A DNA stretch of 64,000 bases from a virus (IMGVR_UViG_3300014501_000003:1-64000), one strand, 5' to 3'. Positions 6,236 through 62,284 are shown, counted from the first letter of the stretch. Notes: generated by a model not told the origin, from the sequence alone. Translations and numbers: made by a program.

Positions 6236-6283
6236 CTATTTAGCCGGGCCGGCTAGGGGGGTGCGGGGAGGTGTCGTGCGTAT

Positions 6284-16176: not shown

Positions 16177-16364
16177 AACGCCCTCTTAGTGATCTCCCGC
16201 CCGAGCCTATCCCGGCGGATCGTGACATGCTGCTGGACGGGCGCGAGCGGCCGACCGCACTTGCCGCACTCATCGCCATTCCGCCACGGGCGCTCGCACT
16301 CGCAGCCCTTGAGCTTCGCGTCCGCGTAGAGCGCTGGGCCGTAGTTCTCGTGGCCTGTGCTCAT
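16173..16364 (-). CDS. Small Cys-rich protein, 63 aa
   Basis: ATG 16364 sits in an ATGA overlap. CECERPWRNGDECGKC resembles a zinc ribbon. Confidence 0.6.
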   Translation of the reverse strand: MSTGHENYGPALYADAKLKGCECERPWRNGDECGKCGRPLAPVQQHVTIRRDRLGREITKRAL

Positions 16365-16600
16365 GCGCGCTCCCAATCCCCGACCGCTCCGACCGTGCGG
16401 GAAGCGATGAACAGTCCCCTTGCGCGGACGACCGAGACTATGTCGTCCGTCCGCACCGTCCGCTGCCGAGTGATTCTCAGCGCCGTCAGCCACGCCTCAG
16501 CCTCCTCGCTGCTACGGAGGCCGGTCGTCTCGACCTGCGGCGGTTCTATGCCGGGAAGACGGTAGAGGATCGCGTACTCCGTATGCTCGCTCTCGGCCAT
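16361..16600 (-). CDS. Hypothetical protein, 79 aa
   Basis: ATG 16600 sits in an ATGA overlap. Confidence 0.6.
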   Translation of the reverse strand: MAESEHTEYAILYRLPGIEPPQVETTGLRSSEEAEAWLTALRITRQRTVRTDDIVSVVRARGLFIASRTVGAVGDWERA

Positions 16601-30620: not shown

Positions 30621-30946
30621 CAGGCGGCCCTCGCCTTCAGCTCGTCGATCTCGGCCCGCATCTCCGCGAGCGTCGCCGCGAGCTTCATCTCATCTGAGGC
30701 CTCTGCGGGCGGGGGTGTCTCGTGATGGAGTCGGAGTGAGTAGCCGAGGGTCTGAGCGCATGCGGCTACGGCGTCGAGCTGGTCCTCATCGGCGAGGACT
30801 GTGACGAACGCGATGGGCGGTCCCTCGACGGGCGGGAAGCCGTGGTCATCGACGGTGCGCTGCACCTCGAAGCCCTGGGAGGCGAGCGCGGTGCGGACCT
30901 GGGGCTCTGAGGATCGCGGGCCTGAGACAACGATGGTGGTGCTCAT
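30620..30946 (-). CDS. Hypothetical protein, 108 aa
   Basis: Track ORF. Confidence 0.65.
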   Translation of the reverse strand: MSTTIVVSGPRSSEPQVRTALASQGFEVQRTVDDHGFPPVEGPPIAFVTVLADEDQLDAVAACAQTLGYSLRLHHETPPPAEASDEMKLAATLAEMRAEIDELKARAA

Positions 30947-44489: not shown

Positions 44490-45032
44490 TCACCAGTGAT
44501 GATGCGTCGCGTGCCCGCTCTTGTCGGGCGCGTTCCCGTGCATGTGCCACGGCCGCGTTATGGCTCGGTGCACCGAGCGCTCAAGGTCTTGCCACTTCGC
44601 ACAGCGCAGCGGCTCGATCCGCGCCTGCGCGGTGATCTTCACGAGCCCGATCGCGGACCAGTCGGCCCACTCCTCGCCGCCCTGCAAGTGGTGCGCCCAG
44701 TCTCCGGTGCCTGCGGCGATGATCCCCTCGGAGTGGCCCGTGGTGATCCAGTGGCACTCGTAGACCCATGAGCAGAGCGGGTGCGGGCAGGCCACGAGCT
44801 CGTCCAGGTGCGCGTCTGAGACCTCGATGTCGTGCTCGACGTTGACGATCGTGAGGTCTGAGTCCCAGAGGGCCTCAAGCGCTATCGCGTAGTCGAAGTC
44901 GCCGCGGCACAACGCGGGCTGGACCGGATAGCGGCTTGAGTGGAAGTGCCCCTCGCCCTCAAGGTGGGAGGCGAGGACGACTACCCGAGCTGGGGACTCG
45001 GAGAGATGATCGCCTTGAACGTCAGCGCCCAA
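44490..45032 (-). CDS. VEHD-family paralogue 2 (unknown function), start uncertain
   Basis: VVVLASHLEGEGHF, TIVNVEHDIEV, CPHPLC and GEEWADWSAIGLVKI are shared with 56044..56526. TTG 45032 follows GGGGAGGGG. No canonical start near the conserved N-terminus. Confidence 0.6.
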   Translation of the reverse strand: MGADVQGDHLSESPARVVVLASHLEGEGHFHSSRYPVQPALCRGDFDYAIALEALWDSDLTIVNVEHDIEVSDAHLDELVACPHPLCSWVYECHWITTGHSEGIIAAGTGDWAHHLQGGEEWADWSAIGLVKITAQARIEPLRCAKWQDLERSVHRAITRPWHMHGNAPDKSGHATHHHW

Positions 45033-45517
45033 TCGATCACCCCTCCCCAGCCGCCGGGTTGACCGGCGATGATGTCGAGCCCTGCGGTGTAGTCGGCCTG
45101 GATCGGGAACATGACCTGCGCGCTCGGGCCCGTGGTGCCGAAGGTCGGCTGATTTCGGTTGGCGATGGCGGGGCCCGCCACACATTCGCCGAACAGCTCG
45201 AAGGTCTGCGCCATCACTTCGGCCGCGAGTTCGGCTGCGCGCGCCGGTTCCGTGGCTGGCGGGGTTTCGCCGGTGAAGTAGCTCGCTTTCCCCTGGATCT
45301 CGTATTCCTCCGCGAGCTGGATCGGGATGGCGTGCCAGTCATACCGAGGTCCCTTGATCGGGCCGACGATGATGTAGCGGGCGGGCTCGAACTGGGCGAG
45401 CGCGCCGGGGAACACGCTCACGGGCTTGGACTGTTCCTCGGCGGCTTCGCGGACGAGCTTCAAGAGGCCCGCGTAGATGCCGGGGACCGAGGAGACGAAG
45501 GCGGTCGGTTCGGTCAC
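44981..45517 (-). CDS. Head-tail joining or tail terminator-like protein, 178 aa
   Basis: GTG 45517 sits in a GTGA overlap. The call is based on position only. Confidence 0.65.
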   Translation of the reverse strand: MTEPTAFVSSVPGIYAGLLKLVREAAEEQSKPVSVFPGALAQFEPARYIIVGPIKGPRYDWHAIPIQLAEEYEIQGKASYFTGETPPATEPARAAELAAEVMAQTFELFGECVAGPAIANRNQPTFGTTGPSAQVMFPIQADYTAGLDIIAGQPGGWGGVIDWALTFKAIISPSPQLG

Positions 45518-48035: not shown

Positions 48036-48742
48036 AGGTGCCGGCGGCTTCGATAGAGAGCCCGGTCGGCCTCCATCGTCGCGTGCCCTTTGCGGTAGGT
48101 GGCGTCCATCTCGCCCTTGCCTGCGGCGGGGTGCTGGTGCTCCACGATCGCTCCGTCGGCGCGCATGAGCTTCCCGCGCGAGCGCGCGACCTCCCAGCAC
48201 TCAGAATCGCTGTAGTTGTGGTCATAGCCCGGGTAGATCACGACGCCGGGCACGTCCACACACCCCGACTGCTCCTCGATGTAGCGGCGGGAGACGAGCG
48301 CGTTCGTGCCATTCGCGTTGTGCAGGTCGTTGACCACGACCACGCCCTCGACCCTGCGCATGGTGCTCAGCGCCGCTGCGAGCCATCCTCGCTGGAACAG
48401 CACGTCATCTGCGCCGAGGAACACGTACGGGGCCTCGGTGGCGTGGAACAGGCGATTGATCCGGTTCGGCCAGGTGTCCCCGTCATCGCGCAGGAACGCG
48501 GCCCCGTGGCGTTCGAGCTCGTCCACGGTGGGCTGATCGGAGGCGGCGAAGACGACGCGGTGGGGCTCGGTCGTGGCGTCGGCGATGTTCGCCAGCAGGG
48601 GTTTGATCCGGTGCGGGCGGTCGAGGACCGGGATCAGGATCGCCGTGCTCAGTTCGTGACGTTCCGCGTCGCACGGCCGTGGGTGCGCAGCGCTTGGGGC
48701 ACACACACAAACCTGGCATCCATGTCCAGGAACTTGAGCCAT
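48008..48742 (-). CDS. GT-A fold glycosyltransferase, start uncertain
   Basis: AILIPVLDRP and FLGADDVLF. ATG 48742 follows GGAGG but GC3 is low there. Alternatives are GTG 48706 and CTG 48652. Confidence 0.7.
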   Translation of the reverse strand: MAQVPGHGCQVCVCAPSAAHPRPCDAERHELSTAILIPVLDRPHRIKPLLANIADATTEPHRVVFAASDQPTVDELERHGAAFLRDDGDTWPNRINRLFHATEAPYVFLGADDVLFQRGWLAAALSTMRRVEGVVVVNDLHNANGTNALVSRRYIEEQSGCVDVPGVVIYPGYDHNYSDSECWEVARSRGKLMRADGAIVEHQHPAAGKGEMDATYRKGHATMEADRALYRSRRHLWTSPSTSR

Positions 48743-49188
48743 AGCAAATAGTCCTCCACGATGTGCGAGACCGGATAGCCGCCCGCCCGCCGGAGCGTCT
48801 CGGTGCGGATGCACGCCTCCCCGTCGATGTAGTTATCGCCGCTGCGCAGCCGCTCGGCATCGAAAGGTCCCCAGGAGTGGGGGTGCCCGCGGCAGTAGGA
48901 GTAGACGACATCGGCGCCGTCGAGGTGCTGGGCCATGAGCTCCAGATACTCGGGGTCGAACGTGTCGTCATCGTCGAGGACCGCGATCCACTCTGTCTCG
49001 ATGGCGGCGAGGATCGCGTTGCGCTGGCGGGCGACGTGTTCGCAGCCGAAGCGGTCGGGCTCCTCGACCCGCACCAGCCACGGCACCGGGCCGATGGTCT
49101 GGGCTCTCACCGATGCGCCGGCCTTCGCCAGCAGCTCGTGGCGCTCAGGAATCGAGACTGTGACGACCGTGAAAGGGGATCGGGTCAC
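48649..49188 (-). CDS. GT2 glycosyltransferase, 179 aa
   Basis: GGAGG lies 6 nt before GTG 49188. TVVTVSIPERHELL and IAVLDDDDTF. Confidence 0.85.
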   Translation of the reverse strand: MTRSPFTVVTVSIPERHELLAKAGASVRAQTIGPVPWLVRVEEPDRFGCEHVARQRNAILAAIETEWIAVLDDDDTFDPEYLELMAQHLDGADVVYSYCRGHPHSWGPFDAERLRSGDNYIDGEACIRTETLRRAGGYPVSHIVEDYLLWLKFLDMDARFVCVPQALRTHGRATRNVTN

Positions 49189-49855
49189 GGACCACCTCCG
49201 CGGCCTGCATCTCGTTCCAGGCGGCTCGCAGCTCCTCATCGCCGGAGCCGTCCAGGCGGGTCATATGTGCGCCGTCGCCGCGCGCCCGGCCCACCGGATC
49301 GAGCGTGGCGCAGCGTTCGCGCACCTTGCGCTTGAAGTGCTCAAAGCCGCGGAACTGGTAGTGGCGGACTTCGAGCAGTCCCCATGTTCCGCCGGGGAGG
49401 CTCACGTCATGGTTGCCGGGAGCGATGTGCGCCTCCTCGGTCCAGCGGTAGGCGACCTTCGGCAGTCGCTCCGGTGCCGCGTACTTCAGCTCCCAGGTCT
49501 GGTGGTGCCAGAGCTGGGCGTAGAGCTTGCCGCCAACACCGAGCGCGAGGGCCTGTGCGATGGGTTTGCCGCCCGTGGCGAACCAAAACTCGTCAGCATC
49601 GAACGGGAGTATCCACTCGGTGCCCGCCTCGGCTGCCAGGTAGTCGATCCAGTAGGGCTGGCGATGGACGGGCTCGTCATCGACAAGCCTGGTGACGCGC
49701 CCGGTTTCCCGTTCCAGCCGCCGCAGAATGTCCGTGGTGCCGTCCGTTGAGGCATCGGCGATCAGGAGCTTGTCCACGCCGCCTGCGAGCAGGCACCGGA
49801 CGGACGCCTCGATGATGTCGGCCTCGTTGCGGACGGTGGAGACGGCTGCGATCAC
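49145..49855 (-). CDS. GT2-like glycosyltransferase, 236 aa
   Basis: VRNEADIIE, LLIADASTDGT and LPFDADEF. GGGAGG precedes GTG 49855. Confidence 0.85.
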   Translation of the reverse strand: MIAAVSTVRNEADIIEASVRCLLAGGVDKLLIADASTDGTTDILRRLERETGRVTRLVDDEPVHRQPYWIDYLAAEAGTEWILPFDADEFWFATGGKPIAQALALGVGGKLYAQLWHHQTWELKYAAPERLPKVAYRWTEEAHIAPGNHDVSLPGGTWGLLEVRHYQFRGFEHFKRKVRERCATLDPVGRARGDGAHMTRLDGSGDEELRAAWNEMQAAEVVRDPIPFHGRHSLDS

Positions 49856-49872
49856 GACGTGCCTCCCGGCCT

Positions 49873-49878
49873 TATGCT
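49873..49878 (+). promoter_or_regulatory. -10-like TATGCT, 6 nt upstream of ATG 49885
   Basis: TAnnnT hexamer with no SD. Confidence 0.35.
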
Positions 49879-49884
49879 TCGACG

Positions 49885-50295
49885 ATGAGCAGGATGGCCG
49901 CGTTCTACGGTGGCCCTTGGCATCAAGAGGAACACTCCGTGCCGGAGCCGATGCCGTTCGACATCCGCGTGCCGCTGCCCGTTGAGCCGATGGTGTTCGT
50001 CTCCCCGGAGCCGCCGCTGGCCCCTGATCTCCTGCTGCGCGTCGCGCGCTATGAGCGCCGCCGCCGCGAGCCCGCGTGGGTCTACGTCTGCGTGGACGAC
50101 GGGCACCCGCTGCCGAAGTGGACCATCGCTGTCATCACGCCGTGGGATGGCGAGGAAGGTGACGAACTCTTCGAGAACGTGGCGACCATCAGCGCGCGCA
50201 CCGCCGAGCACGCCGAACGCATCTACGGCAATCAGCACCCCTATGACCGGGACTACTGCTTCGTGTACGCGCGACCGCTGGGAGAACCCTGGTGA
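49885..50295 (+). CDS. Hypothetical protein, 136 aa, opposite strand inside the glycosyltransferase block
   Basis: Track ORF with high GC3. Confidence 0.65.
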   Translation: MSRMAAFYGGPWHQEEHSVPEPMPFDIRVPLPVEPMVFVSPEPPLAPDLLLRVARYERRRREPAWVYVCVDDGHPLPKWTIAVITPWDGEEGDELFENVATISARTAEHAERIYGNQHPYDRDYCFVYARPLGEPW

Positions 50296-50304
50296 CTAAC
50301 GGCC

Positions 50305-50991
50305 CTACGGCACCGCCACGAAGTGCTCCATGCCCCCGAGCGTCCCTTCGACGTGGGAGAACCCATCGAACCACGCGGGGTCAACGGGGCTCGGCCACCA
50401 TGGCTCATGCGTGGAGAGGTGCAGCGGGATGCCGCGCTCGGCGAGGAACGGCGCGACCGTCTCCAACACCAGCGCCTCCATGCCCTCGATGTCCATCTTC
50501 ACCAGACAGCAGTCCTCGATCGAGTAGTTCTCGAACAGCCGCTCGAGCGTGAAGCACGGCACCGTCTCCGTGGCCTCTGAGGCCTCATAGCGGATCACCG
50601 AGGACATGGCGGTCGCCCAGCCCTGCGGGTGGCTTGAGAGCTCGCAGGTGCCGTTGTAGTCGGCCAGGGCTCCATGGACGCAGCGGACCTTGCCGGGGAC
50701 GTTCCGCTCGACGTGGCGGGAGAGGAACTCGAAGGCCACTCGGTCGGGCTCTACGGCCACCACGTCGGCCCCGCGCTCTGCGCAGCCCATCGAGTGAGCA
50801 CCGATGCAGGCCCCGAGGTCCACGAACGTCGAGCCGGGCCTCACGAAGCGGTCCAGCACCTCAAGCGTGTCGTTCTCCCAGTTCTCGGCCTCCCACTGTT
50901 TCCAGAAGCCGGGGAACGGGCCTTCGGTGTAGGGAGCGGTCGGGGTGGGTTCGTCCACCTCCCAGGTCATGCCGCGTCGGGTGACGATCAC
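50305..50991 (-). CDS. FkbM-family SAM-dependent methyltransferase, 228 aa
   Basis: FVDLGACIGAHS and LVKMDIEGME. GTG 50991 is GTGA-coupled to a mini-ORF. Confidence 0.8.
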   Translation of the reverse strand: MIVTRRGMTWEVDEPTPTAPYTEGPFPGFWKQWEAENWENDTLEVLDRFVRPGSTFVDLGACIGAHSMGCAERGADVVAVEPDRVAFEFLSRHVERNVPGKVRCVHGALADYNGTCELSSHPQGWATAMSSVIRYEASEATETVPCFTLERLFENYSIEDCCLVKMDIEGMEALVLETVAPFLAERGIPLHLSTHEPWWPSPVDPAWFDGFSHVEGTLGGMEHFVAVP

Positions 50992-51119
50992 TCCAATATC
51001 CAGCGGATGCCGCGTCGGTGGCCATAGCCGGTTGGCATTGTGAGCCAGACGACATGCGTCGCGCCCGTCCAGTTGGCCTGCGAGCCTGCGATTGGCGTGT
51101 CGAGCCGCGTGCTGTTCAC
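50988..51119 (-). CDS. Small protein, 43 aa (below the track cutoff)
   Basis: GTGA overlaps at both ends. Translates VNSTRLDTPIAGSQANWTGATHVVWLTMPTGYGHRRGIRWILE. Confidence 0.45.
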   Translation of the reverse strand: MNSTRLDTPIAGSQANWTGATHVVWLTMPTGYGHRRGIRWILE

Positions 51120-51766
51120 TCCATCCACCCCGCCATCCTCTCATGGCCGATGTGCTCGACCCTCGGCTCATCCTCGATCCGTCCGAGGTAGCCGAAGCGG
51201 TAGCCGTGCTCGAGCAGCGTGTCGGTCACGTTGGGCTCTGAGAGCGGGCGCCCGCTCCTCAATGCCAGTTGGATCACCCGCGCGGGGATCAGCGAGGGGT
51301 TCGTCGTGAAGTTCGTCTCATGCTCGATCCACCCGTCGCGCTGGATGAACTCGCCGGGTTTGGTCTGCATGAAGCCGCCGGCCGCCTGCTCCTCGGCGTT
51401 GACGGGCTGGCGCTTCAGGGCGAGCTGGGCGATGTGCGGATGGGCGTCGAGCAGGCTCGCCATCGCCATCAGGTCCACGGGCTCGTTGTAGGTGAAGTCA
51501 TCCTCGGCGTGGAAGACGTACTCGGCGCCGGAGCGGATCACCTCGCGCCACACGGACTCGACGGCGGCGGCAAAGCCACGGCGCTGCTCGTGCACGAGGC
51601 TCGTGTAGTCCACATATCGCATCACGGCGGCGAAGTCCGGGTCGCCCGAGTCATCGACCATGACGCATTCATCGGGCCACGGGTCCAGCGACGCGCGCAG
51701 GCTCTCCACCGCTCGCTCTAGGCACTCCTCGCGCCCGTCCGTGGTGACGGCGAGGGCGAAGCTCAC
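51116..51766 (-). CDS. GT-A fold glycosyltransferase, 216 aa
   Basis: VSFALAVTTDGR, VMVDDSGD and FHAEDDF. GTG 51766 sits in a GTGA overlap. Confidence 0.75.
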   Translation of the reverse strand: MSFALAVTTDGREECLERAVESLRASLDPWPDECVMVDDSGDPDFAAVMRYVDYTSLVHEQRRGFAAAVESVWREVIRSGAEYVFHAEDDFTYNEPVDLMAMASLLDAHPHIAQLALKRQPVNAEEQAAGGFMQTKPGEFIQRDGWIEHETNFTTNPSLIPARVIQLALRSGRPLSEPNVTDTLLEHGYRFGYLGRIEDEPRVEHIGHERMAGWME

Positions 51767-51879
51767 CGTCGCCTCACCCGCCCACAGCGCCCACAGCGCA
51801 TGTAGGAGCGGAGCCACGGCTCGTCATAGTGGACGCCGATGAGACAGAGCAGGTGGCCGAGGAGGCGCAGGCATCTCAC
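51763..51879 (-). CDS. Small Cys-containing protein, 38 aa (below the track cutoff)
   Basis: GTGA overlaps at both ends. Confidence 0.4.
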   Translation of the reverse strand: MRCLRLLGHLLCLIGVHYDEPWLRSYMRCGRCGRVRRR

Positions 51880-53146: not shown

Positions 53147-54369
53147 TGCAGCGTGATCGTGACCTCTGCGCGGAGTCCCGGGTGGATGACGCTCAGCCGG
53201 ACTTCCGTGCTCACCGGCTGGACGTACTGCCCCTGTAGGCCGCCCACGTAGTACGCCATCGGGGCCGCGCCCATGTTCATATCCATGCCCCGGATCATGC
53301 CCCGCTCTAGCCAGGGGACCAGCTCGCGGACCCGCCGTTCGAGGCCGGTGCCGTAGTGCCCGCCCCAATTGTCGGGGAACAGCGGCTCGTGTTTCTCGGG
53401 GCCGAGCAGCCACGCCTCGGCTTCGGCGTGCAGGATTTCAGGGACCGGCTCAGCGCCAAGCTCGCGCGCCAGCGCCTCTGCGTCCTCCCAGCGGTCGAGC
53501 ACGCGGACGCCGTACTCCTCGGCGAGAAGGTCTAGGCCCGCGAGCCCTCCCGCCATCTCGACAGCCTGCATCGAAGCGCCGCACCGGTAACACGAAAGCC
53601 TCGCGCCGTTGACCGACCACGCGTGCGGGCAGTTGCGGTCAACGTCATCAACGCGTGACCTGTCGATGATGCCGACAAGCTCGGCGGTTTCCGCGCGCCA
53701 GCCGTCTGGGTGGATGATCAGGTTGCCGTACCCGATCACGACCGCGCCGACGGCGTAGGCGCCCACGCTGCCCGCGATGGCCTCCGGAGTCGAGTGGGCG
53801 TAGAGCCCGCAGGCGCAGTCCTCTTGCGGCGCGTTGTGTGCGGCAACCGTGGTGGCGACGCACTTCGCGCGCTGGGGCTCGCGCGTGATCGGCCAGCTCG
53901 CTTCGACGCCCGTCGATTTGAGTGGCCCCGTGCCGTCCCACTTGAACGCGCGGTAGCCGATGGCTGGCGCTTGGAGCTGGGCGGTCACGCGGGGACGGGC
54001 TCGGGCTTGCGCACGGGCTCCGCGGGCTCCGGGAGCACGAGCGGCTCCCGCTTCGGAGCCGGAGCGACCGCTGGCACCGTTCCCGGCTTGAGTCCCATGC
54101 CGCGATTCTACGCCCGTGGCCCGTCGCAGGTCTTGCTCGATGATGTCCACGATCACGCCATGCTGCCCCACGTCGCTGACGAGCTGAAGCGAGATCGCCT
54201 CGCCGACCACCGTCCCATTGGGCAGCCGCTTCCACGCCACCACCTGCGCGCGTGCCTGCGACCCGCCGAATCGGTAGGCCAGCGCACTCGGCACCTCGGC
54301 GGGCGTCTCCGCGAGCCGAATCCCTCGCTTGCCCAGCACTCGCCGCAACTCTGCCGTTGCATGGCTCAC
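53140..54369 (-). CDS. Hypothetical protein, 409 aa
   Basis: Track ORF with a GTG start in a GTGA overlap. Confidence 0.75.
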   Translation of the reverse strand: MSHATAELRRVLGKRGIRLAETPAEVPSALAYRFGGSQARAQVVAWKRLPNGTVVGEAISLQLVSDVGQHGVIVDIIEQDLRRATGVESRHGTQAGNGASGRSGSEAGAARAPGARGARAQARARPRVTAQLQAPAIGYRAFKWDGTGPLKSTGVEASWPITREPQRAKCVATTVAAHNAPQEDCACGLYAHSTPEAIAGSVGAYAVGAVVIGYGNLIIHPDGWRAETAELVGIIDRSRVDDVDRNCPHAWSVNGARLSCYRCGASMQAVEMAGGLAGLDLLAEEYGVRVLDRWEDAEALARELGAEPVPEILHAEAEAWLLGPEKHEPLFPDNWGGHYGTGLERRVRELVPWLERGMIRGMDMNMGAAPMAYYVGGLQGQYVQPVSTEVRLSVIHPGLRAEVTITLHV

Positions 54370-54971
54370 ACGAACAAGTTAGCCGCTGGCCAGCCGGGAT
54401 TCAGGTCGAGGACTCGCGGCTCCCCCATCCCGATCCACCGCTCCGCATCGAACCGACTCCTACTCGGGGGCTCCGGGAGAGAGCGCAGGTAGTCACACCG
54501 CGCCATCCAGAAGTTGCCCCCGAAGAACGGGGTCCTGATCGCATTGGGGAAGGCGTCGGGGGTCAGCCAGTGGCAGCCCACCGCGTCGTAGGACTCCAAG
54601 GCTTCGAGGTTGGAGCGCCAGTTGTCGATCACCCGCAGGCACATCGACCTTCGCCAGTCCGCCCGGAACTTCGTCACGTCTGAACTTCCCTTGGTATGCG
54701 CGTACATGCAGGCGCCGTCATTGGTCTGAACCCACTCGCGCAGGGCGTTGATCGTGACCTGCTCGTAGCCCTCGTCAGCTTCGGCGGCGACGGTCACATC
54801 GGGGAGCGGGCTGAAGGCGTCTGCGGCTGCTTCTCGCCAGAACTTCTCACCGACGAGGCCGAGATAGACCGGGCCGGTGAACTCCGCTTTCAGGAGCGTG
54901 TCGACCTGTTCTAGGACGGGCTCTGTCCAGTCTCCGTCAGCGAAAATATGGTAAAAATGCGATAGATGCAC
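54366..54971 (-). CDS. Hypothetical protein (YAHTKG / FGGNFW motifs), 201 aa
   Basis: GTG 54971 (or TTG 54977) avoids the antisense overlap with the plus-strand HNH-like gene. Confidence 0.65.
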   Translation of the reverse strand: MHLSHFYHIFADGDWTEPVLEQVDTLLKAEFTGPVYLGLVGEKFWREAAADAFSPLPDVTVAAEADEGYEQVTINALREWVQTNDGACMYAHTKGSSDVTKFRADWRRSMCLRVIDNWRSNLEALESYDAVGCHWLTPDAFPNAIRTPFFGGNFWMARCDYLRSLPEPPSRSRFDAERWIGMGEPRVLDLNPGWPAANLFV

Positions 54972-54980
54972 CGTCAACCG

Positions 54981-54989
54981 TGATATGAT
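54981..54989 (+). promoter_or_regulatory. Extended -10-like TGATATGAT, 6 nt upstream of ATG 54996
   Basis: TGn plus TATGAT in a local AT-rich patch. No SD. Confidence 0.4.
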
Positions 54990-54995
54990 TGTGTC

Positions 54996-55592
54996 ATGCC
55001 CAAAGAGCTTGACGTGATGGGCCACCGGTTCGGTCGGCTGATTGCCATTCGGAAGATCACGCCCCCCGGAACGCGCAGTAAGTGGGAGTGCCGATGTGAC
55101 TGTGGCGCCATCACCATTGCAGCGCTCTCGCACCTACGAGGGGGACAGACTCGCTCATGTGGTTGCCTCCGTCGTGAGGTTTCAGTAGCCCTGTTCACAA
55201 GGATCGGACGCCAAAACGCCGGCAAGCGCGTCAAACACGGCCACGCGCCTTACAGCCGCAAACGCTCCCCTACCTATGGGAGCTGGTCCGCGATCAAAAC
55301 ACGCTGCCTCAACCCCAACGCCACGGACTACGAGAGGTACGGCGGGAGTGGAATCAAACTCTGCGAGCGCTGGCTCAAGTTCGAGAACTTCCTGGCCGAC
55401 ATGGGCGAGGCACCGGGGCCGGGCTACCAAGTCCACCGCAAGGACTCGGCGCGCGGCTATGAACCGGGCAACTGCGAATGGCTCACGAAGGGCGCCCACT
55501 CTACGTTGCACGGCAAGGAACGCGCCGCGAGGGGCGAACTCGGCCAAGGCCCGCGCGATCCCGTGACTGGTCGCTTCACTCGGGGCGCTTGA
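54996..55592 (+). CDS. Zn-ribbon + HNH_3-like homing-endonuclease-like protein, paralogue A, 198 aa
   Basis: FGRLIAI, CRCDCG, SCGC, YGGSGIKLCERW, ADMGEAPGPGY and GNCEW are shared with 57095..57706 and 60986..61492. Confidence 0.8.
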   Translation: MPKELDVMGHRFGRLIAIRKITPPGTRSKWECRCDCGAITIAALSHLRGGQTRSCGCLRREVSVALFTRIGRQNAGKRVKHGHAPYSRKRSPTYGSWSAIKTRCLNPNATDYERYGGSGIKLCERWLKFENFLADMGEAPGPGYQVHRKDSARGYEPGNCEWLTKGAHSTLHGKERAARGELGQGPRDPVTGRFTRGA

Positions 55593-56043: not shown

Positions 56044-56526
56044 TTATACGTGATGATGAGCCGTGGCCGGCCAATGCACATGGACCTGCTGCTGCACCGA
56101 GGCGAACACCGCGATGTCCACGAACTGCCATGTGCTCTCAGGCAACGGCCGAACCCGAACCTCCGGCGCGATCTTGCAGAACCCGATCCCCCCGAAGTCC
56201 GCCCACTCCTCGCCCTCCTCGATCCACACTCCTCCACACGGGGGCTGTCTGCCGGTGCGGTGTGACCAGTGCGGCCCTCCCGAGACGGCGTTGAGCCAGT
56301 AGGCGTGCGTGCAGAAGGGCTCGGGGCAGTCGAGCAGGGTTTGGATCAGGTCGTCTGAGCACTCCATGTCGTGCTCGACGTTGACGATCGTCTTGTCGGA
56401 CTCCCACCACTCGGCGACTCCGGCGCAGTAGGACTCGGGCTCGACGCACTCGATCGGCCAGACCTCGAAGCGCTCGGACTCGAAGTGGCCTGCACCGGGG
56501 AGATGCGAGGCGAGGACGACGGTCAC
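56044..56526 (-). CDS. VEHD-family paralogue 1 (unknown function), 160 aa
   Basis: MTVVLASHLPGAGHF, TIVNVEHDMEC, CPEPFC, GEEWADFGGIGFCKI and HVHW...HHHV. Confidence 0.7.
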   Translation of the reverse strand: MTVVLASHLPGAGHFESERFEVWPIECVEPESYCAGVAEWWESDKTIVNVEHDMECSDDLIQTLLDCPEPFCTHAYWLNAVSGGPHWSHRTGRQPPCGGVWIEEGEEWADFGGIGFCKIAPEVRVRPLPESTWQFVDIAVFASVQQQVHVHWPATAHHHV

Positions 56527-56750: not shown

Positions 56751-57098
56751 CTAGCGAGTCTCCCTCACGACCGACTCGACCTCGACCAGCTCGCCGCCAC
56801 GATTGACGAAGTGGCGAAGCGTCCTCGCCCCGACCGGGCAGAGATAGAGTTCGCCCGCGTGGGCCTCCGGGCCCCGCCGGCAGTTCAAGCAGCAGCCGCC
56901 CGTCTCATCCGGCGTCCATCGCTTGCGCATATCCGCGCCCATCTCCGACACCATCTGGTCGTGAACCTCCCGCTCATGCGCCGGATCGGGTCCGGCCGCA
57001 CGTAGCTGAGCCGAGACGCGCGCCCCGCCCTCTCCCTCGTTGATCCCGATACCTCGCGGGGTCTTGATCTGCTCGGGCGGTAGGGGCTGCGGGGTCAC
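56751..57098 (-). CDS. Hypothetical protein, 115 aa
   Basis: Track ORF with CCLNC...C. Confidence 0.65.
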   Translation of the reverse strand: MTPQPLPPEQIKTPRGIGINEGEGGARVSAQLRAAGPDPAHEREVHDQMVSEMGADMRKRWTPDETGGCCLNCRRGPEAHAGELYLCPVGARTLRHFVNRGGELVEVESVVRETR

Positions 57099-57706
57099 GG
57101 CTTCTCCTGTTCCATGTCGGCTCGCACGAGCGTCACGAGCTCGGCTCGCGTCATCCCGAGCGCTTTGGCCACCGCGGCAAGGCTGATCGCCGGGCGTCGC
57201 TGTCGGCTGTTTCGTACCTGCTCAGACCGTGTCGCCCATCGGCAGTTTCCCGGTTCGTAGTCGCCGTCGTTGTCGATGCGGTCGAGTGTGTACTCAGGGC
57301 CAGGCTTCTCGCCCATATCGGTGAGAAAGTTCGGGAAGCCATCTGGTCCCTGCCAGCGCTCGCAGACAGTGATCCCGCGGCCGCCGTAGTTCTCCCACGA
57401 TGGGTCCCTTTGGTTTCTACAGCGCGCACGCATGAGCGTCCACGTCATGTAGAGCGGATGTCTTGACTTGCGGAACGCATAGCCGTGAACGCGCGGCCCG
57501 CTCGGAAGGTTTCGCTGCGATGTCTGCCGTACGAGACACCCACACGACCGCGTGTGTCCGTTCGCCAGATGGTTAGCGGCGACCACCGTCGTCTTTCCGC
57601 AGGAGCAGAGGCATCGCCAAGCTGTTTGCGTGCCGATATTCGCCACGCGCTCCTGCACGGTCAACCGTCCGAACTGCTGTCCGGCTTGATCGATAAATGC
57701 TCCCAT
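57095..57706 (-). CDS. Zn-ribbon + HNH_3-like homing-endonuclease-like protein, paralogue B, 203 aa
   Basis: [63 protein letters not shown]. Confidence 0.8.
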   Translation of the reverse strand: MGAFIDQAGQQFGRLTVQERVANIGTQTAWRCLCSCGKTTVVAANHLANGHTRSCGCLVRQTSQRNLPSGPRVHGYAFRKSRHPLYMTWTLMRARCRNQRDPSWENYGGRGITVCERWQGPDGFPNFLTDMGEKPGPEYTLDRIDNDGDYEPGNCRWATRSEQVRNSRQRRPAISLAAVAKALGMTRAELVTLVRADMEQEKP

Positions 57707-57713
57707 CCAACGC

Positions 57714-57719
57714 AGTATA
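57714..57719 (-). promoter_or_regulatory. -10-like TATACT, 7 nt upstream of ATG 57706
   Basis: Lies in the AT-rich 31-nt spacer after the capsid B stop. No SD. Confidence 0.35.
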
Positions 57720-57737
57720 TAGCGGCACCGGATAGCT

Positions 57738-59084
57738 TTATTTCAGGGCCGACGTATATCCAGCTCCCCTGATGACCGCCGTTCCAGCCGCATGCCGGGT
57801 GACACACGCAGCGTACTCGCGCAGGTTGAGGATCGTCCGCAACGTATCGCCCTTGGCTTCGAGGAACACGCTCAGCACCGGCTCGTCCTCCATTACGATG
57901 ATGGCGTCGCCGGGCGAGGACACGAGCAGCGGCGTCTGTGTCGTGGTTCCAAAAAGTGGCAGGTTGTCATCGGTCATCCAGAGCACGCCGCCAGGAAGAA
58001 CAGTGCCGGTGAACCGCGACCACTTCGGCATCTTGTTGTCTTCGTCGTGGTCGTCAGCGTCTGCGGCGAGCGGGAAGCCGGGGACGAACTGCGGGACGAC
58101 GATCGGGCGTTCCTGTTTGTCGAGCTGGCTTGTCGCGTGGGAGTAGAGGTCCGAGGTCGTGAACAGGTGCGTCGGGCGCAGCCGCGTGCCGGCGGTGTCG
58201 GTGATTTCCTCGCGGGCCGTCGCCAGGTCTTCGTACAGCCCGCCCGTCGTGTAGGAGGACTTGCCGCTGACCGCGTTGCCCTTGCTGATCGCCTGGTTCA
58301 GCACGTACAGGTCCACTTCGGCATCCAACTGCTGCTGTAGCTGTTTGCCGATGATGACGTCGGTGGCGCCGCCGCCCGAGCCGCCCCGGTCGTGTAGCTG
58401 CTGGGTGCCGGTGATCTGCCCGGTGATCGTCGCGACTGTCGCTGACGGTTCGAGTTCGGTGGCCGGCTCGGTTTCCGCCACTGAGCCGCCCTCGGTCTGC
58501 TGGCCCACTTTCGGCCCCGTGCTGAAGTAGGGCACGTACACTTTCATGCCGAACGCCGGGAGCGGCAGGAGGATGCACTGGTCGGTGAACGATCGTGCGG
58601 CGCCGCGGAACGGTGCCCACTGGTCGAACAGGAAGGCAGGAGTCACGAACGGCGCGGCTTCGCCGGGCGAGCTCGCCGAGATGCCCCCGTCGGTGCCGAA
58701 GCCGCGGATCTCGTTCAGCAGTCTCGTCGCCCGCCGCTGGTCTTCCTCGGCATCGCCGGTGCGGACGCGAGCGCGGATGATCCGTTCGGCGCGCTGGCCC
58801 TCCTTCGAGCCCCGTGCCATCTCTGAGCCGAGTTCCTTTTCATAGCGGATCAGCCGCTGGCGGGCGTCGAGGGTGCCGGGGAAGTCGGGCTGCGCCGCGG
58901 ACACCACGTCGGCATAGAAGGAGTGGCGCGAGCGTAGGCCGTAGGTGGGCGGCTCGTGGGTGACGCTGGCGTCGCTCTGCGCCTTCTCGCGTTCCGCCTT
59001 CTCGCGCTCGCGTGCCAGCCGCTCGCCGATGATCCGGTCAACCTCAGCCTGCTGCGCAGGCGTAAACACCACGTCGCTCATCAT
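57738..59084 (-). CDS. HK97-fold major capsid protein paralogue B, 448 aa
   Basis: GGAGG precedes the ATG. GTDGGISASSPGEAAPFVTPAF, FTDQC, FGMKVYVP, QQLHDRGG, RPTHLF and GTTTQ are collinear with capsid A. Confidence 0.85.
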   Translation of the reverse strand: MMSDVVFTPAQQAEVDRIIGERLAREREKAEREKAQSDASVTHEPPTYGLRSRHSFYADVVSAAQPDFPGTLDARQRLIRYEKELGSEMARGSKEGQRAERIIRARVRTGDAEEDQRRATRLLNEIRGFGTDGGISASSPGEAAPFVTPAFLFDQWAPFRGAARSFTDQCILLPLPAFGMKVYVPYFSTGPKVGQQTEGGSVAETEPATELEPSATVATITGQITGTQQLHDRGGSGGGATDVIIGKQLQQQLDAEVDLYVLNQAISKGNAVSGKSSYTTGGLYEDLATAREEITDTAGTRLRPTHLFTTSDLYSHATSQLDKQERPIVVPQFVPGFPLAADADDHDEDNKMPKWSRFTGTVLPGGVLWMTDDNLPLFGTTTQTPLLVSSPGDAIIVMEDEPVLSVFLEAKGDTLRTILNLREYAACVTRHAAGTAVIRGAGYTSALK

Positions 59085-59145
59085 GTCCTCCGTTGGGGGA
59101 GTAGGTCCGACGCTTTGGAGCGCGCGTCGTCAGCGCGAAGTTGGA

Positions 59146-59173
59146 GGCGAGCGCCCCCGAAGGGACGCCCGCC
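59146..59173 (-). terminator. Hairpin with a UUCG tetraloop after capsid A
   Basis: On the minus strand GGCGGGCGTCCC-TTCG-GGGGCGCTCGCC (10/12 pairs), 10 nt after the stop at 59183. Confidence 0.45.
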
Positions 59174-59182
59174 AGAGGTCGC

Positions 59183-60847
59183 CTAGTTGGTGTAGGTGAC
59201 CGCTTTCATGCCTTCACCGTTGATCGCCGCCACGCCTTCGGCGTAGCGCTTGATCGCGGTGCCATACGAGTACTGCTGGAGAATTACCTGGAGGGTGTTG
59301 GCTTTGGTCTGTGGAATCGTCCGGGGAGTGATTGCCCCCTCGAACACCCACAGCTCCGACAGACACCCGACGATTGCCTGGTCGTTCGTCGTGGTGCCCT
59401 GGTCCGGGATGTTCTCGTCCGTGAACACCGGCAGCCCGACGAATTTGTAACCCGTCGCGCCCTCGATGCCCTCGTCACCTGATGCCGAACCTGCCGCCGC
59501 CGCGTTGAACGGCCCGGCGTAGTCCGGCACGATCAGCGAACGGCCAGTCGTGTCGGTCACCGCCGCCATGTACTCCCAGCGGGTCGGCCGCACGAACAGG
59601 TGCGTCGGGTTCAGCACGGTACCCGCGAGAGTGCGGATGTCGGCCTTCGCTTTCGCGATCTGCCCGTAGAACCCACCGGCTTTGGCTTCGCCCGCCGCCG
59701 AGACTTCCGTGAGCACGAATTTGCCGGCGTTGCCTTTCCAGTTGTTGACTTTGGCTTCGGCCAGCGCGATTTCCAGGCAGTACACGTCGAAGTTCAACGC
59801 GTAGTTGCGCATCAGCTGATCGAAGATCAGTTTGTCGAACGCGAAGCCAGGGCCTGCCCGATCGAGCAGCTGCTGTGAGACGACGACCTGCCCGGCGAAC
59901 GTTTTCAACGCCCCCGAGAGGTAGCCCGCAGTCGGTGCCAGATCGGCGATCGTGGTGGAGCCCGCGGACTCCGTGGTCGCTGTTACTTCGGCGCCGCCCG
60001 TGACGTGTGGGATGTAGACGTACATCCCATATGGCGGGAGCTGTTCTTTCTGGCACTGGTCTGCGAACGCCCGGCCGAATTCACGGTAGGGCGCGTAGTC
60101 GCCGACTTTGAACACGGGGGTCACGAACGCCGAGCCTTCACCCGGTGCTGTGGCCGACGCGCCTCCGTCGGTGCCGACTGCGGTTGCACGCAGCTCGGGC
60201 TTGTCCTCGATCGCCATGCGGCCGCGCTGGTCGAACTCCTTCATCCGAGCCGCTGTGGCTGCCTGGTCCTCGCCGCGGATCGTTTCGCGGATCTGCTTCT
60301 CGGCCGAGCGTCCGAACGGCGTGCGCTGGGCGTACTCCTTCTCGACCTGATGCGCCCATTCGGTCAGACGCTTCGAGGACCCGTGGTCATAGTCCCCGGC
60401 GAACAGCGCTTTGCAGCGGAGTGCCAGGTCCATGTAGAACGAGTTCGGCGAACGCTCACCGTCGGCCGCGACGCCGTAGACCGGCCGGTCGCCTTCGATG
60501 ACCTCCACGTCGGCGATCGAGTCCACCGAGCGGATGTGCTCGCGGGACTCGGCGATCGCCTTCGCGTCCTTCGCCCGCTGCGTCTCTTCCTTGATGCGCT
60601 TGCGGATGGTCTTTACTTCCTTGCGGATCGGCTTCAGGTCCTCGTCGGCCGAGTCGATCTCCGTGCGCAGCTCGTCGCAGCGCGCGGTCTCTTTCTCGTC
60701 TGCGTCGCGGTCCTCGCCTTTGTCGTTGGTGAGGCCCTCGACGATCTTGCGGAACTCCGCTTCCGACCCGTCACGGCGCGTGACCAACTCGTCACGGCGT
60801 GTCTGGGCGGCCTCGGCGTTCTCCACGAGCTCTGCTAGAGCGCTCAT
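59183..60847 (-). CDS. HK97-fold major capsid protein paralogue A with an N-terminal delta/scaffold-like coiled coil, 554 aa
   Basis: ATG 60847 follows AAGGACAAGG. GTDGGASATAPGEGSAFVTPVF, FADQC, YGMYVYIP, QQLLDRAG and NPTHLF. Confidence 0.9.
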   Translation of the reverse strand: MSALAELVENAEAAQTRRDELVTRRDGSEAEFRKIVEGLTNDKGEDRDADEKETARCDELRTEIDSADEDLKPIRKEVKTIRKRIKEETQRAKDAKAIAESREHIRSVDSIADVEVIEGDRPVYGVAADGERSPNSFYMDLALRCKALFAGDYDHGSSKRLTEWAHQVEKEYAQRTPFGRSAEKQIRETIRGEDQAATAARMKEFDQRGRMAIEDKPELRATAVGTDGGASATAPGEGSAFVTPVFKVGDYAPYREFGRAFADQCQKEQLPPYGMYVYIPHVTGGAEVTATTESAGSTTIADLAPTAGYLSGALKTFAGQVVVSQQLLDRAGPGFAFDKLIFDQLMRNYALNFDVYCLEIALAEAKVNNWKGNAGKFVLTEVSAAGEAKAGGFYGQIAKAKADIRTLAGTVLNPTHLFVRPTRWEYMAAVTDTTGRSLIVPDYAGPFNAAAAGSASGDEGIEGATGYKFVGLPVFTDENIPDQGTTTNDQAIVGCLSELWVFEGAITPRTIPQTKANTLQVILQQYSYGTAIKRYAEGVAAINGEGMKAVTYTN

Positions 60848-60967
60848 GTGCCTTGTCCTTTCGTGTGGGTTTTGTGTTCCCCACGCGATCCCGAACCGCA
60901 CTCCGGACATTGCCAGCAGTACTCGGCTTTTCGCCTTTCCTCGACCTAGCAGGGTGACCGTCGTGCG

Positions 60968-60976
60968 TGGTACTAT
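60968..60976 (+). promoter_or_regulatory. Extended -10-like TGGTACTAT, 9 nt upstream of ATG 60986
   Basis: TGn plus TACTAT. No SD. Confidence 0.4.
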
Positions 60977-60985
60977 CGTGGTCTG

Positions 60986-61492
60986 ATGTCTTGGCAAGAC
61001 AAGGTCATTGCGCCCGGCACCGTGCTCGATCACTGGACCGTGATTGGTCTTTCCAGCGAGAGGCATCGTCGCTATCGCATGTACATGTGCCGCTGCGTGT
61101 GCGGCACCGAACGCGTGGTGCGGAGCGATCAGTTGCTAGCGGGGCGGTCCCGCAGTTGCGGCTGCAAACGTCCGGCCGAGCGCAAGCGGCGCGCTCTCAG
61201 CGGGCCGAGCCTGCGAAGCCATTCCCTCTACAAGACTTGGTCTGATATGCGCTATCGGTGCCAGAACCCGAAGCACAAGAGCTACGCCTACTACGGCGGG
61301 CGCGGGATCACGGTGTGCGATCGGTGGCAGGTCTTCGCCAACTTCCTAGCCGATATGGGCGAGCGGCCGGAGGGCCTGACGCTGGATCGCCGCGACAACG
61401 ACGGCCCCTACTCGCCCGAGAACTGCCGATGGGCGACGCGGAAGGAACAGGCCGGAAATCGGCGCTCGCCCGAGATGCGCGGGCGCCGATAG
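60986..61492 (+). CDS. Zn-ribbon + HNH_3-like homing-endonuclease-like protein, paralogue C, 168 aa
   Basis: [56 protein letters not shown]. Confidence 0.8.
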
Positions 61493-61699
61493 GTGGAGTA
61501 CGTCTGGCTGGACGACATCGCGCCCGAGGTCGAGGTCGACTATGAGCACCACGCGCGGTGCGAGCGCGAGGTCATCGGCCCCGCGCTGGAACGTCTCGGC
61601 TACAGGCTCAGCGGGCCGTGGTTCACGGGTGACGGCGATTCGTTCGGGCCGCTGACCCGCTGCATCCGCACGGACAAGGTCATCGTCGTCTATGGCTGA
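61493..61699 (+). CDS. Hypothetical protein, 68 aa
   Basis: Track ORF with GTG directly after the upstream TAG. Confidence 0.6.
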   Translation: MEYVWLDDIAPEVEVDYEHHARCEREVIGPALERLGYRLSGPWFTGDGDSFGPLTRCIRTDKVIVVYG

Positions 61700-61781
61700 C
61701 AGCGCACATGGCGCGCGGTGGGACTAACTGCGTGTCGAGGCTTTGACGGTGCCTCAGCCGTAAGTGGGATGCTTTGGGGCG

Positions 61782-61994
61782 ATGAGCCTTGCCATAGCGC
61801 TGATCGACGCCGCGACCAACTGCGAGCGGGACGGCGCGAGCGCGCTCCTGACGCTGCGCTCGGGGCGCGAGATCAGCGGCAAGTTGGACAAGCGGGTCGG
61901 CGGCTCGCTCACGGTGCACGTCAAACTCAGCGACGGCGGATGGAGCGCGGTGCTGGTCGATGAGATCGCGGCCGTCACGGCGGTCCCGGCATGA
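61782..61994 (+). CDS. Hypothetical protein, 70 aa
   Basis: Internal ATG 61782 of track ORF 61764..61994. Confidence 0.6.
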   Translation: MSLAIALIDAATNCERDGASALLTLRSGREISGKLDKRVGGSLTVHVKLSDGGWSAVLVDEIAAVTAVPA

Positions 61995-62284
61995 GCGTGA
62001 GTCGGCACATCCCCGATCGGTGCGTGACCTTCAAGTACGTTGCGGGCAGCCCCGATCAGCACAACCCGCGCATCGATCGAGTCGTTCGGAGGCCGCCGGG
62101 CCGTGTCCGCCGACTGCTGCGCCTTCGCCCGCGGGTGTTCGTCCTTCGCGGCGTCCCAACGCCGGGCGCGGAACTCCGCAACCTTCTCGGCGCACCGCTG
62201 CCGCGCTCTGGTGACGAAATCCTGTGCAACGTGATCGTTCCGCCCCGCTCCAGTGCGGGCTCGAACACGATTAGCCTCTGCTAG
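61991..62284 (+). CDS. Doubtful ORF, 97 aa
   Basis: ATGA-coupled to the previous gene, but its second half is Arg-rich. The antisense frame looks equally protein-like. Confidence 0.3.
   Translation: MSVSRHIPDRCVTFKYVAGSPDQHNPRIDRVVRRPPGRVRRLLRLRPRVFVLRGVPTPGAELRNLLGAPLPRSGDEILCNVIVPPRSSAGSNTISLC

Follow-up and report, generated by a model that had tools for sequence, protein, structure and literature searches.

Two adjacent HK97-fold capsid proteins from old sister families in an uncultured siphophage and their possible division of labor between hexamers and vertices

The 64,000-nucleotide stretch of viral DNA IMGVR_UViG_3300014501_000003:1-64000 (hereafter the window, a term that always refers to the whole stretch) encodes, next to each other on the minus strand, two homologous major capsid proteins, here called MCP1 and MCP2, that are both predicted to adopt the HK97 fold behind a helical N-terminal domain. 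Our analysis places them in two old families, M1 and M2, which occur together in a range of related phages. With respect to function, we give an even chance to a division of labor in which MCP1 builds the hexamers of the capsid and MCP2 is a low-copy vertex (penton) subunit, a role that is our interpretation of the comparative data set out below.

The homology of the two proteins is evident from their sequences. MCP1 and MCP2 align by BLASTP with 32% identity over ~458 columns (E value, 1e-52), and the alignments of the M1 and M2 families match each other in hhalign with a probability of 100 and an E value of 3e-88 (31% identity over 436 columns). An earlier note on this DNA, made from the sequence alone, had listed six motifs common to both proteins, all of which are visible in the MCP1/MCP2 alignments. 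The open reading frame (ORF) sizes given there, 554 and 448 aa, were likewise confirmed; for MCP1, whose full open frame spans positions 59183..61066 (minus strand), the ATG at 60847 agrees with the gene calls for the identical database protein P0121 and with the relatives.

Structure prediction points the same way. AlphaFold2, supplied with the family alignments, returned a mean predicted local distance difference test score of 76.8 for both proteins and predicted template modeling scores of 0.53 for MCP1 and 0.73 for MCP2. In both models, an all-helical N-terminal region (residues 1-222 of MCP1 and about 1-125/130 of MCP2) is followed by an alpha/beta core. When compared with the Protein Data Bank (PDB) using Foldseek, both cores matched HK97 gp5 and ~50 other capsid structures with a probability of 1.00 and E values of 1e-10 to 1e-13, the matches including, besides gp5, the capsid proteins of D3, HFTV1, GTA, and many actinophages. 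The target TM-scores of both cores against HK97-fold capsids were 0.6 to 0.7, and the BFVD matches of MCP2 were all capsid proteins except for two entries named "prohead protease." Both proteins are, on these models, HK97-fold capsid proteins behind helical N-terminal domains, and the reading in the earlier note of two adjacent paralogues of this fold withstood the comparison, since both ORFs model as the HK97 fold. The cores are of similar size (~322 aa in MCP2 versus ~333 aa in MCP1), that of MCP2 differing by a deletion of 14 residues behind the spine helix and an insertion of 6 residues.

Sequence-based family searches were less sensitive. The Pfam family Phage_capsid (PF05065) matched MCP1 with 22.3 bits, under the cutoff of 24.2, and MCP2 had no Pfam hit; among the relatives, PF05065 is precomputed on many M1 proteins and a Pfam capsid hit (PF25209) on only one M2 protein. 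The M1 and M2 family profiles found no match among the PDB sequences. Cultured matches were obtained for MCP1 only, in Omega-like phages, the Bippervirus group, and two Mycobacterium abscessus prophages. MCP1 is 27% to 31% identical to the single capsid proteins of cultured Mycobacterium phages, the values for Omega and Cracklewink being 28% to 31%, with one capsid gene each in Omega, Cracklewink, and prophiT37-1. For MCP2, a tblastn search of 50,697 phage records gave no match at an E value of 1e-5, and a DNA megablast search with positions 57000-62000 of the window against the phage collection gave none either.

Database searches with MCP1 and MCP2 returned two nonoverlapping sets of proteins, all of the relatives of the window in both families being metagenomic. 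M1-type proteins are 37% to 100% identical to MCP1 and ~30% identical to MCP2, and M2-type proteins are 43% to 100% identical to MCP2 and ~31% identical to MCP1. Neighbor-joining trees, for which distances were corrected in a simple way, show the two families as reciprocally monophyletic, with a bootstrap value of 100 for M2, and MCP2 is closer to the capsid proteins of certain chromosomal islands (56% to 61% identity) than to MCP1. We therefore reject a recent tandem duplication, given this reciprocal monophyly and given that the relatives of each gene are far closer to it than its partner is. The paralogues that the earlier note had described as tandem are indeed homologous and adjacent, but they do not stem from a local duplication; M2 is an old sister lineage of M1. 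As far as the available sequences, which did not include those of Jabs, allow a test, the descent of the M2 family also appears to be independent of the known vertex proteins; a function in common with them would have arisen by convergence. Within the M2 tree, the deep nodes have bootstrap values below 20, and phage-borne and island-borne M2 interleave in the tree of the cores. Repeated independent capture of M2 from islands is nevertheless not supported, considering these low values, an N-terminal motif unique to the short forms, and the correlation of M1 and M2 distances, both of which are described below.

The two families differ most at their N termini. M2 comes in a long form, found in islands, and a short form, found in phages. 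Since the long form aligns to M1 over its whole length, including the N-terminal coiled coil, its architecture is the ancestral one. The phage-borne form lacks the first ~100 residues of the coiled coil present in M1 and in island M2, which leaves MCP2 with a pro-region of ~125 residues versus ~222 in MCP1. The N-terminal helical domain of MCP2 starts with a scaffold-protein-like motif, VFTPAQQAEVDRIIGERLARER, and residues 4-36 match the head scaffolding protein family PHROG 14063 at 1.1e-6. Most short M2 proteins begin with (T)F(T/S)xE(D/Q)V(D/N)xI(V/I)xxRLAR(D/E)R. The strict form of this pattern occurs in 18 of 59 short M2 proteins and in none of 120 M1 or 61 long M2 proteins; looser variants, that of MCP2 in the window among them, are seen in the alignment, and a few short M2 proteins, e.g., L018 and P0047, have no such motif. 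M1, short M2, and long M2 all keep E-x-R-x-x-(G)-T-(D/G)-G-G-x-(S/T)-A where the helical domain joins the core.

We fetched 54 loci and assigned their capsid genes by best family match. A search of related genomes for the same pair, which the earlier note had suggested, turned up both M1 and M2 in 19 loci, each from an uncultured actinobacterial siphophage and each a phage head module with the gene order TerL, portal, a 150- to 237-aa gene, S78 protease, M1, M2. Among these dual-capsid loci, the identity of M1 to that of the window falls to about 37% to 45%. Their M2 is always of the short form (~406 to 465 aa), with an intact frame in all 19, and every M2 in a phage head module is accompanied by M1 (19/19). 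In 18 of the 19, M2 lies downstream of M1 on the same strand. Beyond these verified loci, we infer nine more M1-M2 pairs because the lengths of their contigs match. Both capsid genes are present in all close relatives sampled, with L014 as a possible exception. In this contig (9650-12124), an M1 gene 85% identical to MCP1 precedes an HNH gene, an ORF with a coiled coil, and regulator-like genes in antisense orientation, and no M2 was found in the 2.5 kb between the MCP1 homolog and the contig end; either the genome of L014 has been rearranged, or L014 is a close relative that lacks M2. At least seven further loci (L016, L020, L022/L039, L027, L028, L037, and L040) are M1-only, i.e., have no second capsid gene in the sequence fetched; their head-to-tail module is contiguous, with no second capsid gene within 5 to 8 kb.

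Both capsid genes are under purifying selection. By the Nei-Gojobori method, the ratio of nonsynonymous to synonymous substitutions (dN/dS) for the closest pairs is 0.16 in M1 and 0.22 to 0.23 in M2, with dS compressed by a strong bias in G+C content at third codon positions (GC3). M2 shows no interruptions, and the GC3 of MCP2, 0.85, is like that of other phage genes. Across 13 dual-capsid phages, the pairwise identities of M1 and M2 correlate with r = 0.81 versus 0.59 for M1 and the protease, and the mean pairwise values of 0.52 and 0.50 for M1 and M2 indicate equal divergence. Such codivergence is the pattern expected of partners in one structure. A decaying copy, which the earlier note had raised as a way in which its reading could fail, is rejected for either gene by the intact frames, the dN/dS of ~0.2, and the codivergence of M2 with M1.

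MCP1 and MCP2 are separated by 98 nt (59085-59182) that contain two hairpins and the Shine-Dalgarno sequence of MCP2 (Table 1). The gap with its UUCG-loop hairpin was found as the earlier note had described it, with a stem of 12 bp, and the second gene does have a ribosome-binding site of its own. The ATG at 59084 is 1 nt away from this site, GGAGGA, and the one at 59081, where the database protein P0001 (447 aa) begins, 4 nt away; because the first spacing is so short, the second ATG is the likelier start of MCP2. A strong, G+C-rich hairpin follows the stop codon of M1 in every dual-capsid locus examined, its sequence varying between loci while the structure is kept. Overall, we found a hairpin after M1 in 12 loci with both capsid genes and in 7 with M1 only, and after the capsid gene of 3 mycobacteriophages (cultured or prophage), with folding energies of -13 to -41 kcal/mol, and that in Omega, Cracklewink, and prophiT37-1 is equally strong. 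We therefore reject the hairpin as a regulator specific to the pair; contrary to what its place in the earlier note implied, it is not special to paired capsid genes but a generic feature behind the capsid gene in this group, where it probably acts as a terminator, an attenuator, or a stabilizer of the mRNA. Of six loci checked for a hairpin behind M2, five have a weak one. As the strong hairpin follows M1 and not M2, M1 would be marked as the abundant capsid gene, with M2 in a zone of lower expression. The small second hairpin, ahead of the ribosome-binding site, may control translation of MCP2; its sequence is kept in L002 and L003, and L015 has a similar hairpin of different sequence. The M1-M2 gap of L003 also holds, after the hairpin, a tRNA-Met (CAT) gene (7877-7946). 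At the same place in L002 (~2440-2460) and L013 (~9690-9710), there is a T-arm-like element, GGGCGGTTCGATTCCGCCC, with no complete tRNA called, and the gap in the window has neither.

The long form of M2 (~510 to 580 aa) was found in 14 chromosomal loci, mostly in metagenome-assembled genomes (MAGs) of Solirubrobacterales and other Actinomycetota. Where the gene context is available, these M2-only islands are 5 to 15 kb in length, are flanked by host housekeeping genes, and carry a serine recombinase or tyrosine integrase, helix-turn-helix (HTH) regulators, and sometimes TerL. They contain no M1, portal, or tail module, and no protease was recognized in them; compared with the head region of the window at an E value of 1e-5, they had nothing in common with it besides M2. 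The TerL of island L046 is 45% to 76% identical to that of M1-type phages. Judging from their gene content, the islands would be satellite-like elements of M1-type phages, in which long M2 may either build the island's own capsid or act like Ccm, the satellite-encoded homolog of a capsid protein discussed below. Besides long M2, island L008 (Solirubrobacterales MAG CAVRPO01, 2600-16600) encodes an integrase, a primase/helicase-like protein, and a tape-measure-like protein with a lysozyme domain. Three genes are common to L008 and the window (37311-41354 and 29796-30946), namely, the tape-measure gene (72% identity in the C-terminal 400 aa) and two others (74% and 51%), which implies recent gene flow and possibly a helper-satellite pairing.

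Several further features of the islands were observed. Another Solirubrobacterales MAG, CAWEGZ01, contains three separate M2-type loci (L009, L010, and L011). Islands L044-L050 and L053 combine long M2 and TerL with HTH genes, a recombinase, and a conserved 170- to 238-aa gene just upstream of M2; considered as a diverged protease, this gene had no Pfam or PHROG hits even at E = 1. The idea that long M2 might be a protease-capsid fusion arose from PHROG 2263, which spans protease and capsid protein, and was rejected, as none of eight long M2 proteins has a Pfam domain and their extra N terminus aligns with the coiled coil of M1. Contig L019 (3614-7800 of an 8.7-kb viral contig) combines an island-type gene set, with a TerL 76% identical to that of L046 and genes for 227 and 136 aa, with an M1-type capsid gene and lacks a protease; the island backbone is thus able to carry either capsid family.

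Considering these data, we propose the following scenario for the phage. MCP1, with its full-length helical delta (scaffolding) domain and a strong hairpin behind its gene of the kind typical of capsid genes with high expression, would form the hexamers and drive assembly. MCP2 would be translated from its own ribosome-binding site downstream of the hairpin and reach a lower level. As it is missing half of the scaffolding domain, MCP2 would be unable to assemble alone; instead, it would coassemble with MCP1 and fill the eleven pentameric vertices. Both proteins keep the E-x-R-x-x-G-T-D/G-G-G junction between helical domain and core, and the S78 protease encoded just upstream would trim both. 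Coassembly, presence in the virion, location in pentamers, lower abundance, and proteolytic processing are the elements of this scenario that we infer. We favor it because known vertex paralogues show a parallel N-terminal reduction and because, in the solved phage systems (T4, Nocturne116, and Jabs), the paralogue encoded after the capsid gene forms the pentamers. The M2-only islands, which have no M1, portal, or recognizable protease, furthermore fit a protein that works with the capsid proteins of a helper phage.

In T4, gp23 forms the hexamers and gp24 the vertex pentamers, the two being HK97-fold paralogues of low identity. The gene for gp24 directly follows that for the major capsid protein, downstream of the prohead protease gene; both proteins are processed by the protease, gp24 having the shorter N-terminal pro-region, a short propeptide. 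gp24 can also be bypassed by changes in the major capsid protein, and a similar bypass would explain the M1-only relatives. T4, however, is a large prolate myovirus with a separate scaffold core, whereas the window phage is a siphovirus, and gp24 is universal and fixed in position among T4 relatives, whereas M2 is patchy and carries a 125-residue helical domain. Within the collection of 50,697 phage records, neither gp24 nor any other protein matched MCP2 in sequence. The earlier note had named T4 as the known precedent; it has since been joined by solved structures in which a paralogue forms the pentamers, namely, those of the c2-like phages (PMC13595954), Jabs (doi 10.64898/2026.07.24.740622), and Ccm (PMC8569155).

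The capsid of Jabs has T=9 symmetry, with 80 hexamers of MCPh (ORF72, 594 aa), from which the N-terminal ~250 to 266 residues are removed, and 11 pentamers of MCPp (ORF73, 257 aa) (doi 10.64898/2026.07.24.740622). Jabs resembles the window phage in being an actinobacterial siphophage with adjacent HK97-fold genes, a long first protein, and a shorter second one, and, by analogy, a genome of ~71.5 kb would suit T=9. Whereas MCPp has no delta domain, a reduced A-domain, and 18% identity to MCPh, MCP2 has 448 aa, a helical N-terminal domain, a full-size core, and 32% identity to MCP1. In the c2-like Nocturne116, the vertex protein VP has the HK97 fold and 24% identity to the major capsid protein, is encoded after the gene for the latter, and forms 11 pentamers; it was annotated as hypothetical in c2-like relatives until the structure was solved (PMC13595954). 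Here too, a paralogue gene follows the capsid gene of a small siphophage. Nocturne116 differs in its prolate head (Tend = 4, Tmid = 8), its chain-mail cross-links, its host from an unrelated phylum (Lactococcus), the lack of any reported link to satellites, and the strong reduction of VP, which has a small E-loop and hardly any N-arm; the MCP2 core is not reduced to this extent. The "vertex protein" of phiCbK was considered as a further precedent and rejected, as it is a processed form of the same capsid gene.

For the islands, the closest model is Ccm of SaPIbov5, an HK97-fold paralogue of the helper capsid protein with a delta domain of its own. Ccm supplies the pentamers of shells in which the helper provides the hexamers. 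The small integrative element that encodes it has no hexamer protein, portal, or protease of its own, and Ccm redirects the prolate capsid to T=4, to the harm of the helper (PMC8569155). The Ccm gene lies in a satellite and that of MCP2 in a complete siphophage genome, so it is the long-form relatives, not MCP2 itself, that share its setting. In Actinomycetota, capsid-encoding satellites have been described as EPIPs of Mycolicibacterium (PMC12822802) and as MulchRoom and MiniFlayer of Streptomyces (PMC10690885). These are small, combine a capsid gene with packaging genes and an integrase, and depend on a helper siphophage; the M2 islands, known only from metagenome assemblies, resemble them by gene content. 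EPIPs also carry a tape-measure gene, as island L008 does. A wider form of our proposal, which we regard as doubtful, is that M2 is a dedicated pentamer former on both sides of a helper-satellite relation, in the short form in M1-type siphophages of Solirubrobacterales and other Actinomycetota and in a long, Ccm-like form with a full scaffolding domain in small integrative islands with TerL. In this case, the long M2 of an island would join the M1 hexamers of the helper, undergo cleavage by the helper's protease, and impose a smaller size on the shell. The vertex protein of the phage would then also lock out substitution of the pentamer by the satellite, and phage M2 would be the evolutionary source or sink of the size-redirecting gene of the satellites.

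A number of observations weigh against a vertex role for MCP2. Its core shows no clear reduction of the A-domain or E-loop such as that seen in Jabs MCPp and Nocturne116 VP and is nearly equal in size to that of MCP1 (322 versus 333 aa), and the protein retains a 125-residue helical domain. Supported clades of the M1 tree contain M1-only and dual-capsid phages intermingled, and, since M1-only relatives are common, M1 is able to make pentamers alone, with M2 evolutionarily dispensable. The placement of M2 also varies: in most loci it comes directly behind M1, a gene like the window's orf56044 intervenes in L021 and L034, and in L029, M2 is located on the upstream side of the protease. Among the phage-borne M2 cores, several are nearer to island M2 (59% to 70% identity) than to MCP2 of the window or to each other, and in L013 and L017, M1 is 78% to 83% identical to that of the window and M2 only 57%. 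This mismatch, together with the nearness to island proteins, suggests allele exchange. Finally, island capsid genes are not necessarily pentamer specialists, as L019 has one of the M1 type.

As an alternative, MCP2 might act in a conflict between phages and satellites, the long-M2 islands being satellites of M1-type phages. Short M2 could then be a decoy or dominant-negative subunit that poisons or resizes satellite capsids, or else a guard that occupies the vertices ahead of a Ccm-like pentamer that redirects capsid size. The 14 long-M2 loci without M1, portal, recognizable protease, or tail genes, some with a TerL 45% to 76% identical to that of M1-type phages, are in line with this, as are the three genes shared by L008 and the window, the interleaving of phage and island M2 at 59% to 70% identity, and the patchy occurrence and variable position of M2 among M1-type phages. 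Ccm, moreover, sets a precedent for a satellite capsid homolog used against the helper (PMC8569155). An arms-race gene, however, would be expected to evolve faster and independently, whereas M1 and M2 codiverge (r = 0.81) at equal rates under ordinary purifying selection, and the short forms have their N-terminal motif in common, which speaks for one origin and against repeated capture, the deep M2 nodes having bootstrap values below 20. No phage-encoded anti-satellite capsid decoy is known, and the satellite nature of the islands is itself deduced from their genes. Overall, we consider a role in such a conflict unlikely.

The similar size of the two cores, with no obvious trimming for pentamers, would also suit alternative or mixed shells without vertex specialization, in which M2 provides a second capsid size or T number, enters mixed hexamers, or is a partly redundant spare acquired through recombination with an M2-type element. 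Each family seems able to be the sole capsid gene, M1 in the M1-only phages and M2 in the islands, and Family 2 encapsulins are reported to be able to form two-component HK97-fold shells of variable composition (PMC11071501). Phage M2, however, always lacks the N-terminal half of the scaffolding-like domain, which argues against autonomous assembly, always lies beside M1 (19/19 loci), and is located downstream of the post-capsid hairpin, from which a lower abundance has been argued. We know of no tailed phage with heterohexamers, which likewise counts against mixed shells, and on balance we think such shells quite unlikely. That MCP2 is a functionless hitchhiker or decaying copy, brought in, for instance, with the neighboring HNH genes, is highly improbable. 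HNH genes do flank the capsid genes of the window, group I introns invade M1 in relatives, and M2 is missing from some related phages, but L003 has the pair without any HNH gene, M2 is kept down to ~40% identity while codiverging with M1, and the intact frame in 19 of 19 loci, dN/dS of ~0.2, and GC3 of 0.85, as in other phage genes, have already largely refuted this explanation.

With respect to the genome as a whole, the window has a G+C content of 62% to 69% and the gene content of a phage genome, with non-structural genes (helicase/methylase, exonuclease, and endolysin) and a long structural operon on the minus strand. The identical database twin of MCP2, P0001, sits on a 71.5-kb metagenomic contig. 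The window is most of the ~71.5-kb genome of an uncultured high-G+C siphophage; related elements were found in MAGs of Solirubrobacterales and other Actinomycetota. Around MCP2 lies a complete siphophage set of protease, adaptor, tail, tape-measure, and lysis genes. On the minus strand, the S78 prohead protease gene, whose homologs hold the same position in dual-capsid and M1-only relatives, is followed by MCP1 and MCP2 and, further downstream, by small ORFs, a glycosyltransferase/methyltransferase block, a head-tail adaptor, a major-tail-like gene, and a 1347-aa tape-measure gene. The features of the capsid region are listed in Table 1.

Table 1. Features of the capsid gene region in the window
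Feature	Coordinates	Strand	Evidence
Third paralogous HNH endonuclease gene	54996-55592	+	PHROG 374
HNH endonuclease gene directly downstream of MCP2	57095..57706	-	PHROG 374 at 8.8e-62
MCP2 (M2 family, short phage-borne form), 447/448 aa	57738..59084	-	PHROG 2263 at 1.8e-11; Foldseek, HK97-fold capsids, E ~1e-10
GGAGGA Shine-Dalgarno sequence of MCP2	59086..59091	-	Sequence
Small second hairpin, CGACGC..GCGTCG, ahead of MCP2 ribosome-binding site	59108..59129	-	Region folding
G+C-rich 12-bp stem with UUCG loop, 9 nt past MCP1 stop	59146..59173	-	Region folding
MCP1 (M1 family), 554 aa from ATG 60847	59183..60847	-	PHROG 2263 major head protein at 1.9e-27; Foldseek, HK97 1ohg, E 6e-13
HNH endonuclease gene, free-standing, between protease and MCP1	60986..61492	+	PHROG 374 at 2e-58
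Prohead maturation protease, S78 family, 438 aa	62281..63597	-	Pfam Peptidase_S78 at 9.5e-18; PHROG 80 head maturation protease at 1.3e-24

The capsid genes have three paralogous free-standing HNH genes around them, two of which run antisense to the operon. That between the protease and MCP1 has no counterpart at this position in L003 and is a mobile insertion antisense to the capsid genes. The one directly downstream of MCP2 is a mobile insertion as well; L002 has it too, but L003 does not, its homolog of orf56751 directly following M2. L003 has no HNH genes at all, and other relatives have them at other positions. The M1 gene of the window is uninterrupted, and that of some relatives is split, by inserts at 8587-8814 in L038, 3169-3926 and 4712-4974 in L001, and 8823-9085 and 9806-10067 in L017. 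The insert in L038 is a group I intron (RF00028, 68.7 bits), and a group I intron was also matched at the corresponding gap in L001, with 37.4 bits (E value, 2e-7), under the gathering score; the ~264-nt inserts of L001 and L017 (two in L017) were not recognized by Rfam. Taken with these introns, the HNH genes make the capsid gene region appear to be a hot spot of homing elements.

The interval from the capsid genes to the head-tail adaptor contains two genes for glycosyltransferases and one for a methyltransferase (48649-51817; also 54366-55133). Mycobacteriophage Omega has a like arrangement, with gp16 and gp17 directly after the capsid gene, which suggests that the virion is glycosylated. 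Two window ORFs without a family match, 56044-56526 (160 aa) and 44490-45185 (231 aa), both match one gene located just after M1 in relatives and are a second paralogue pair in the structural operon. The non-structural half of the genome contains a single tRNA-Glu (CTC) gene (22104-22190, minus strand).

For a long time, T4 was the only tailed phage known to have a dedicated penton paralogue, and the structures of Jabs and Nocturne116 (2026) were presented as unusual or unprecedented. If MCP2 is a vertex protein, the window phage would be the fourth phage lineage with a division of labor between hexamers and pentamers. A two-gene capsid, its second gene annotated as "hypothetical," is a conserved trait of a broad uncultured clade of soil and environmental actinobacterial siphophages. 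As the division of labor has already been described in cultured phages, what is new here is the breadth of this environmental clade and its link to satellite-like islands. The system is set apart by three properties: part of the scaffolding domain is kept, the second protein is dispensable among relatives, and its family supplies the sole capsid gene of the islands. A variant that keeps part of the scaffolding domain bears on how the choice between pentamer and hexamer is made during assembly, and sister phages with and without M2 offer a natural comparison for the benefit of a separate vertex protein. Should MCP2 prove to have no vertex role, the alternatives of an anti-satellite decoy or of mixed shells would be of even greater novelty. 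A capsid family common to phages and satellite-like islands would make the origin of Ccm-type redirection testable.

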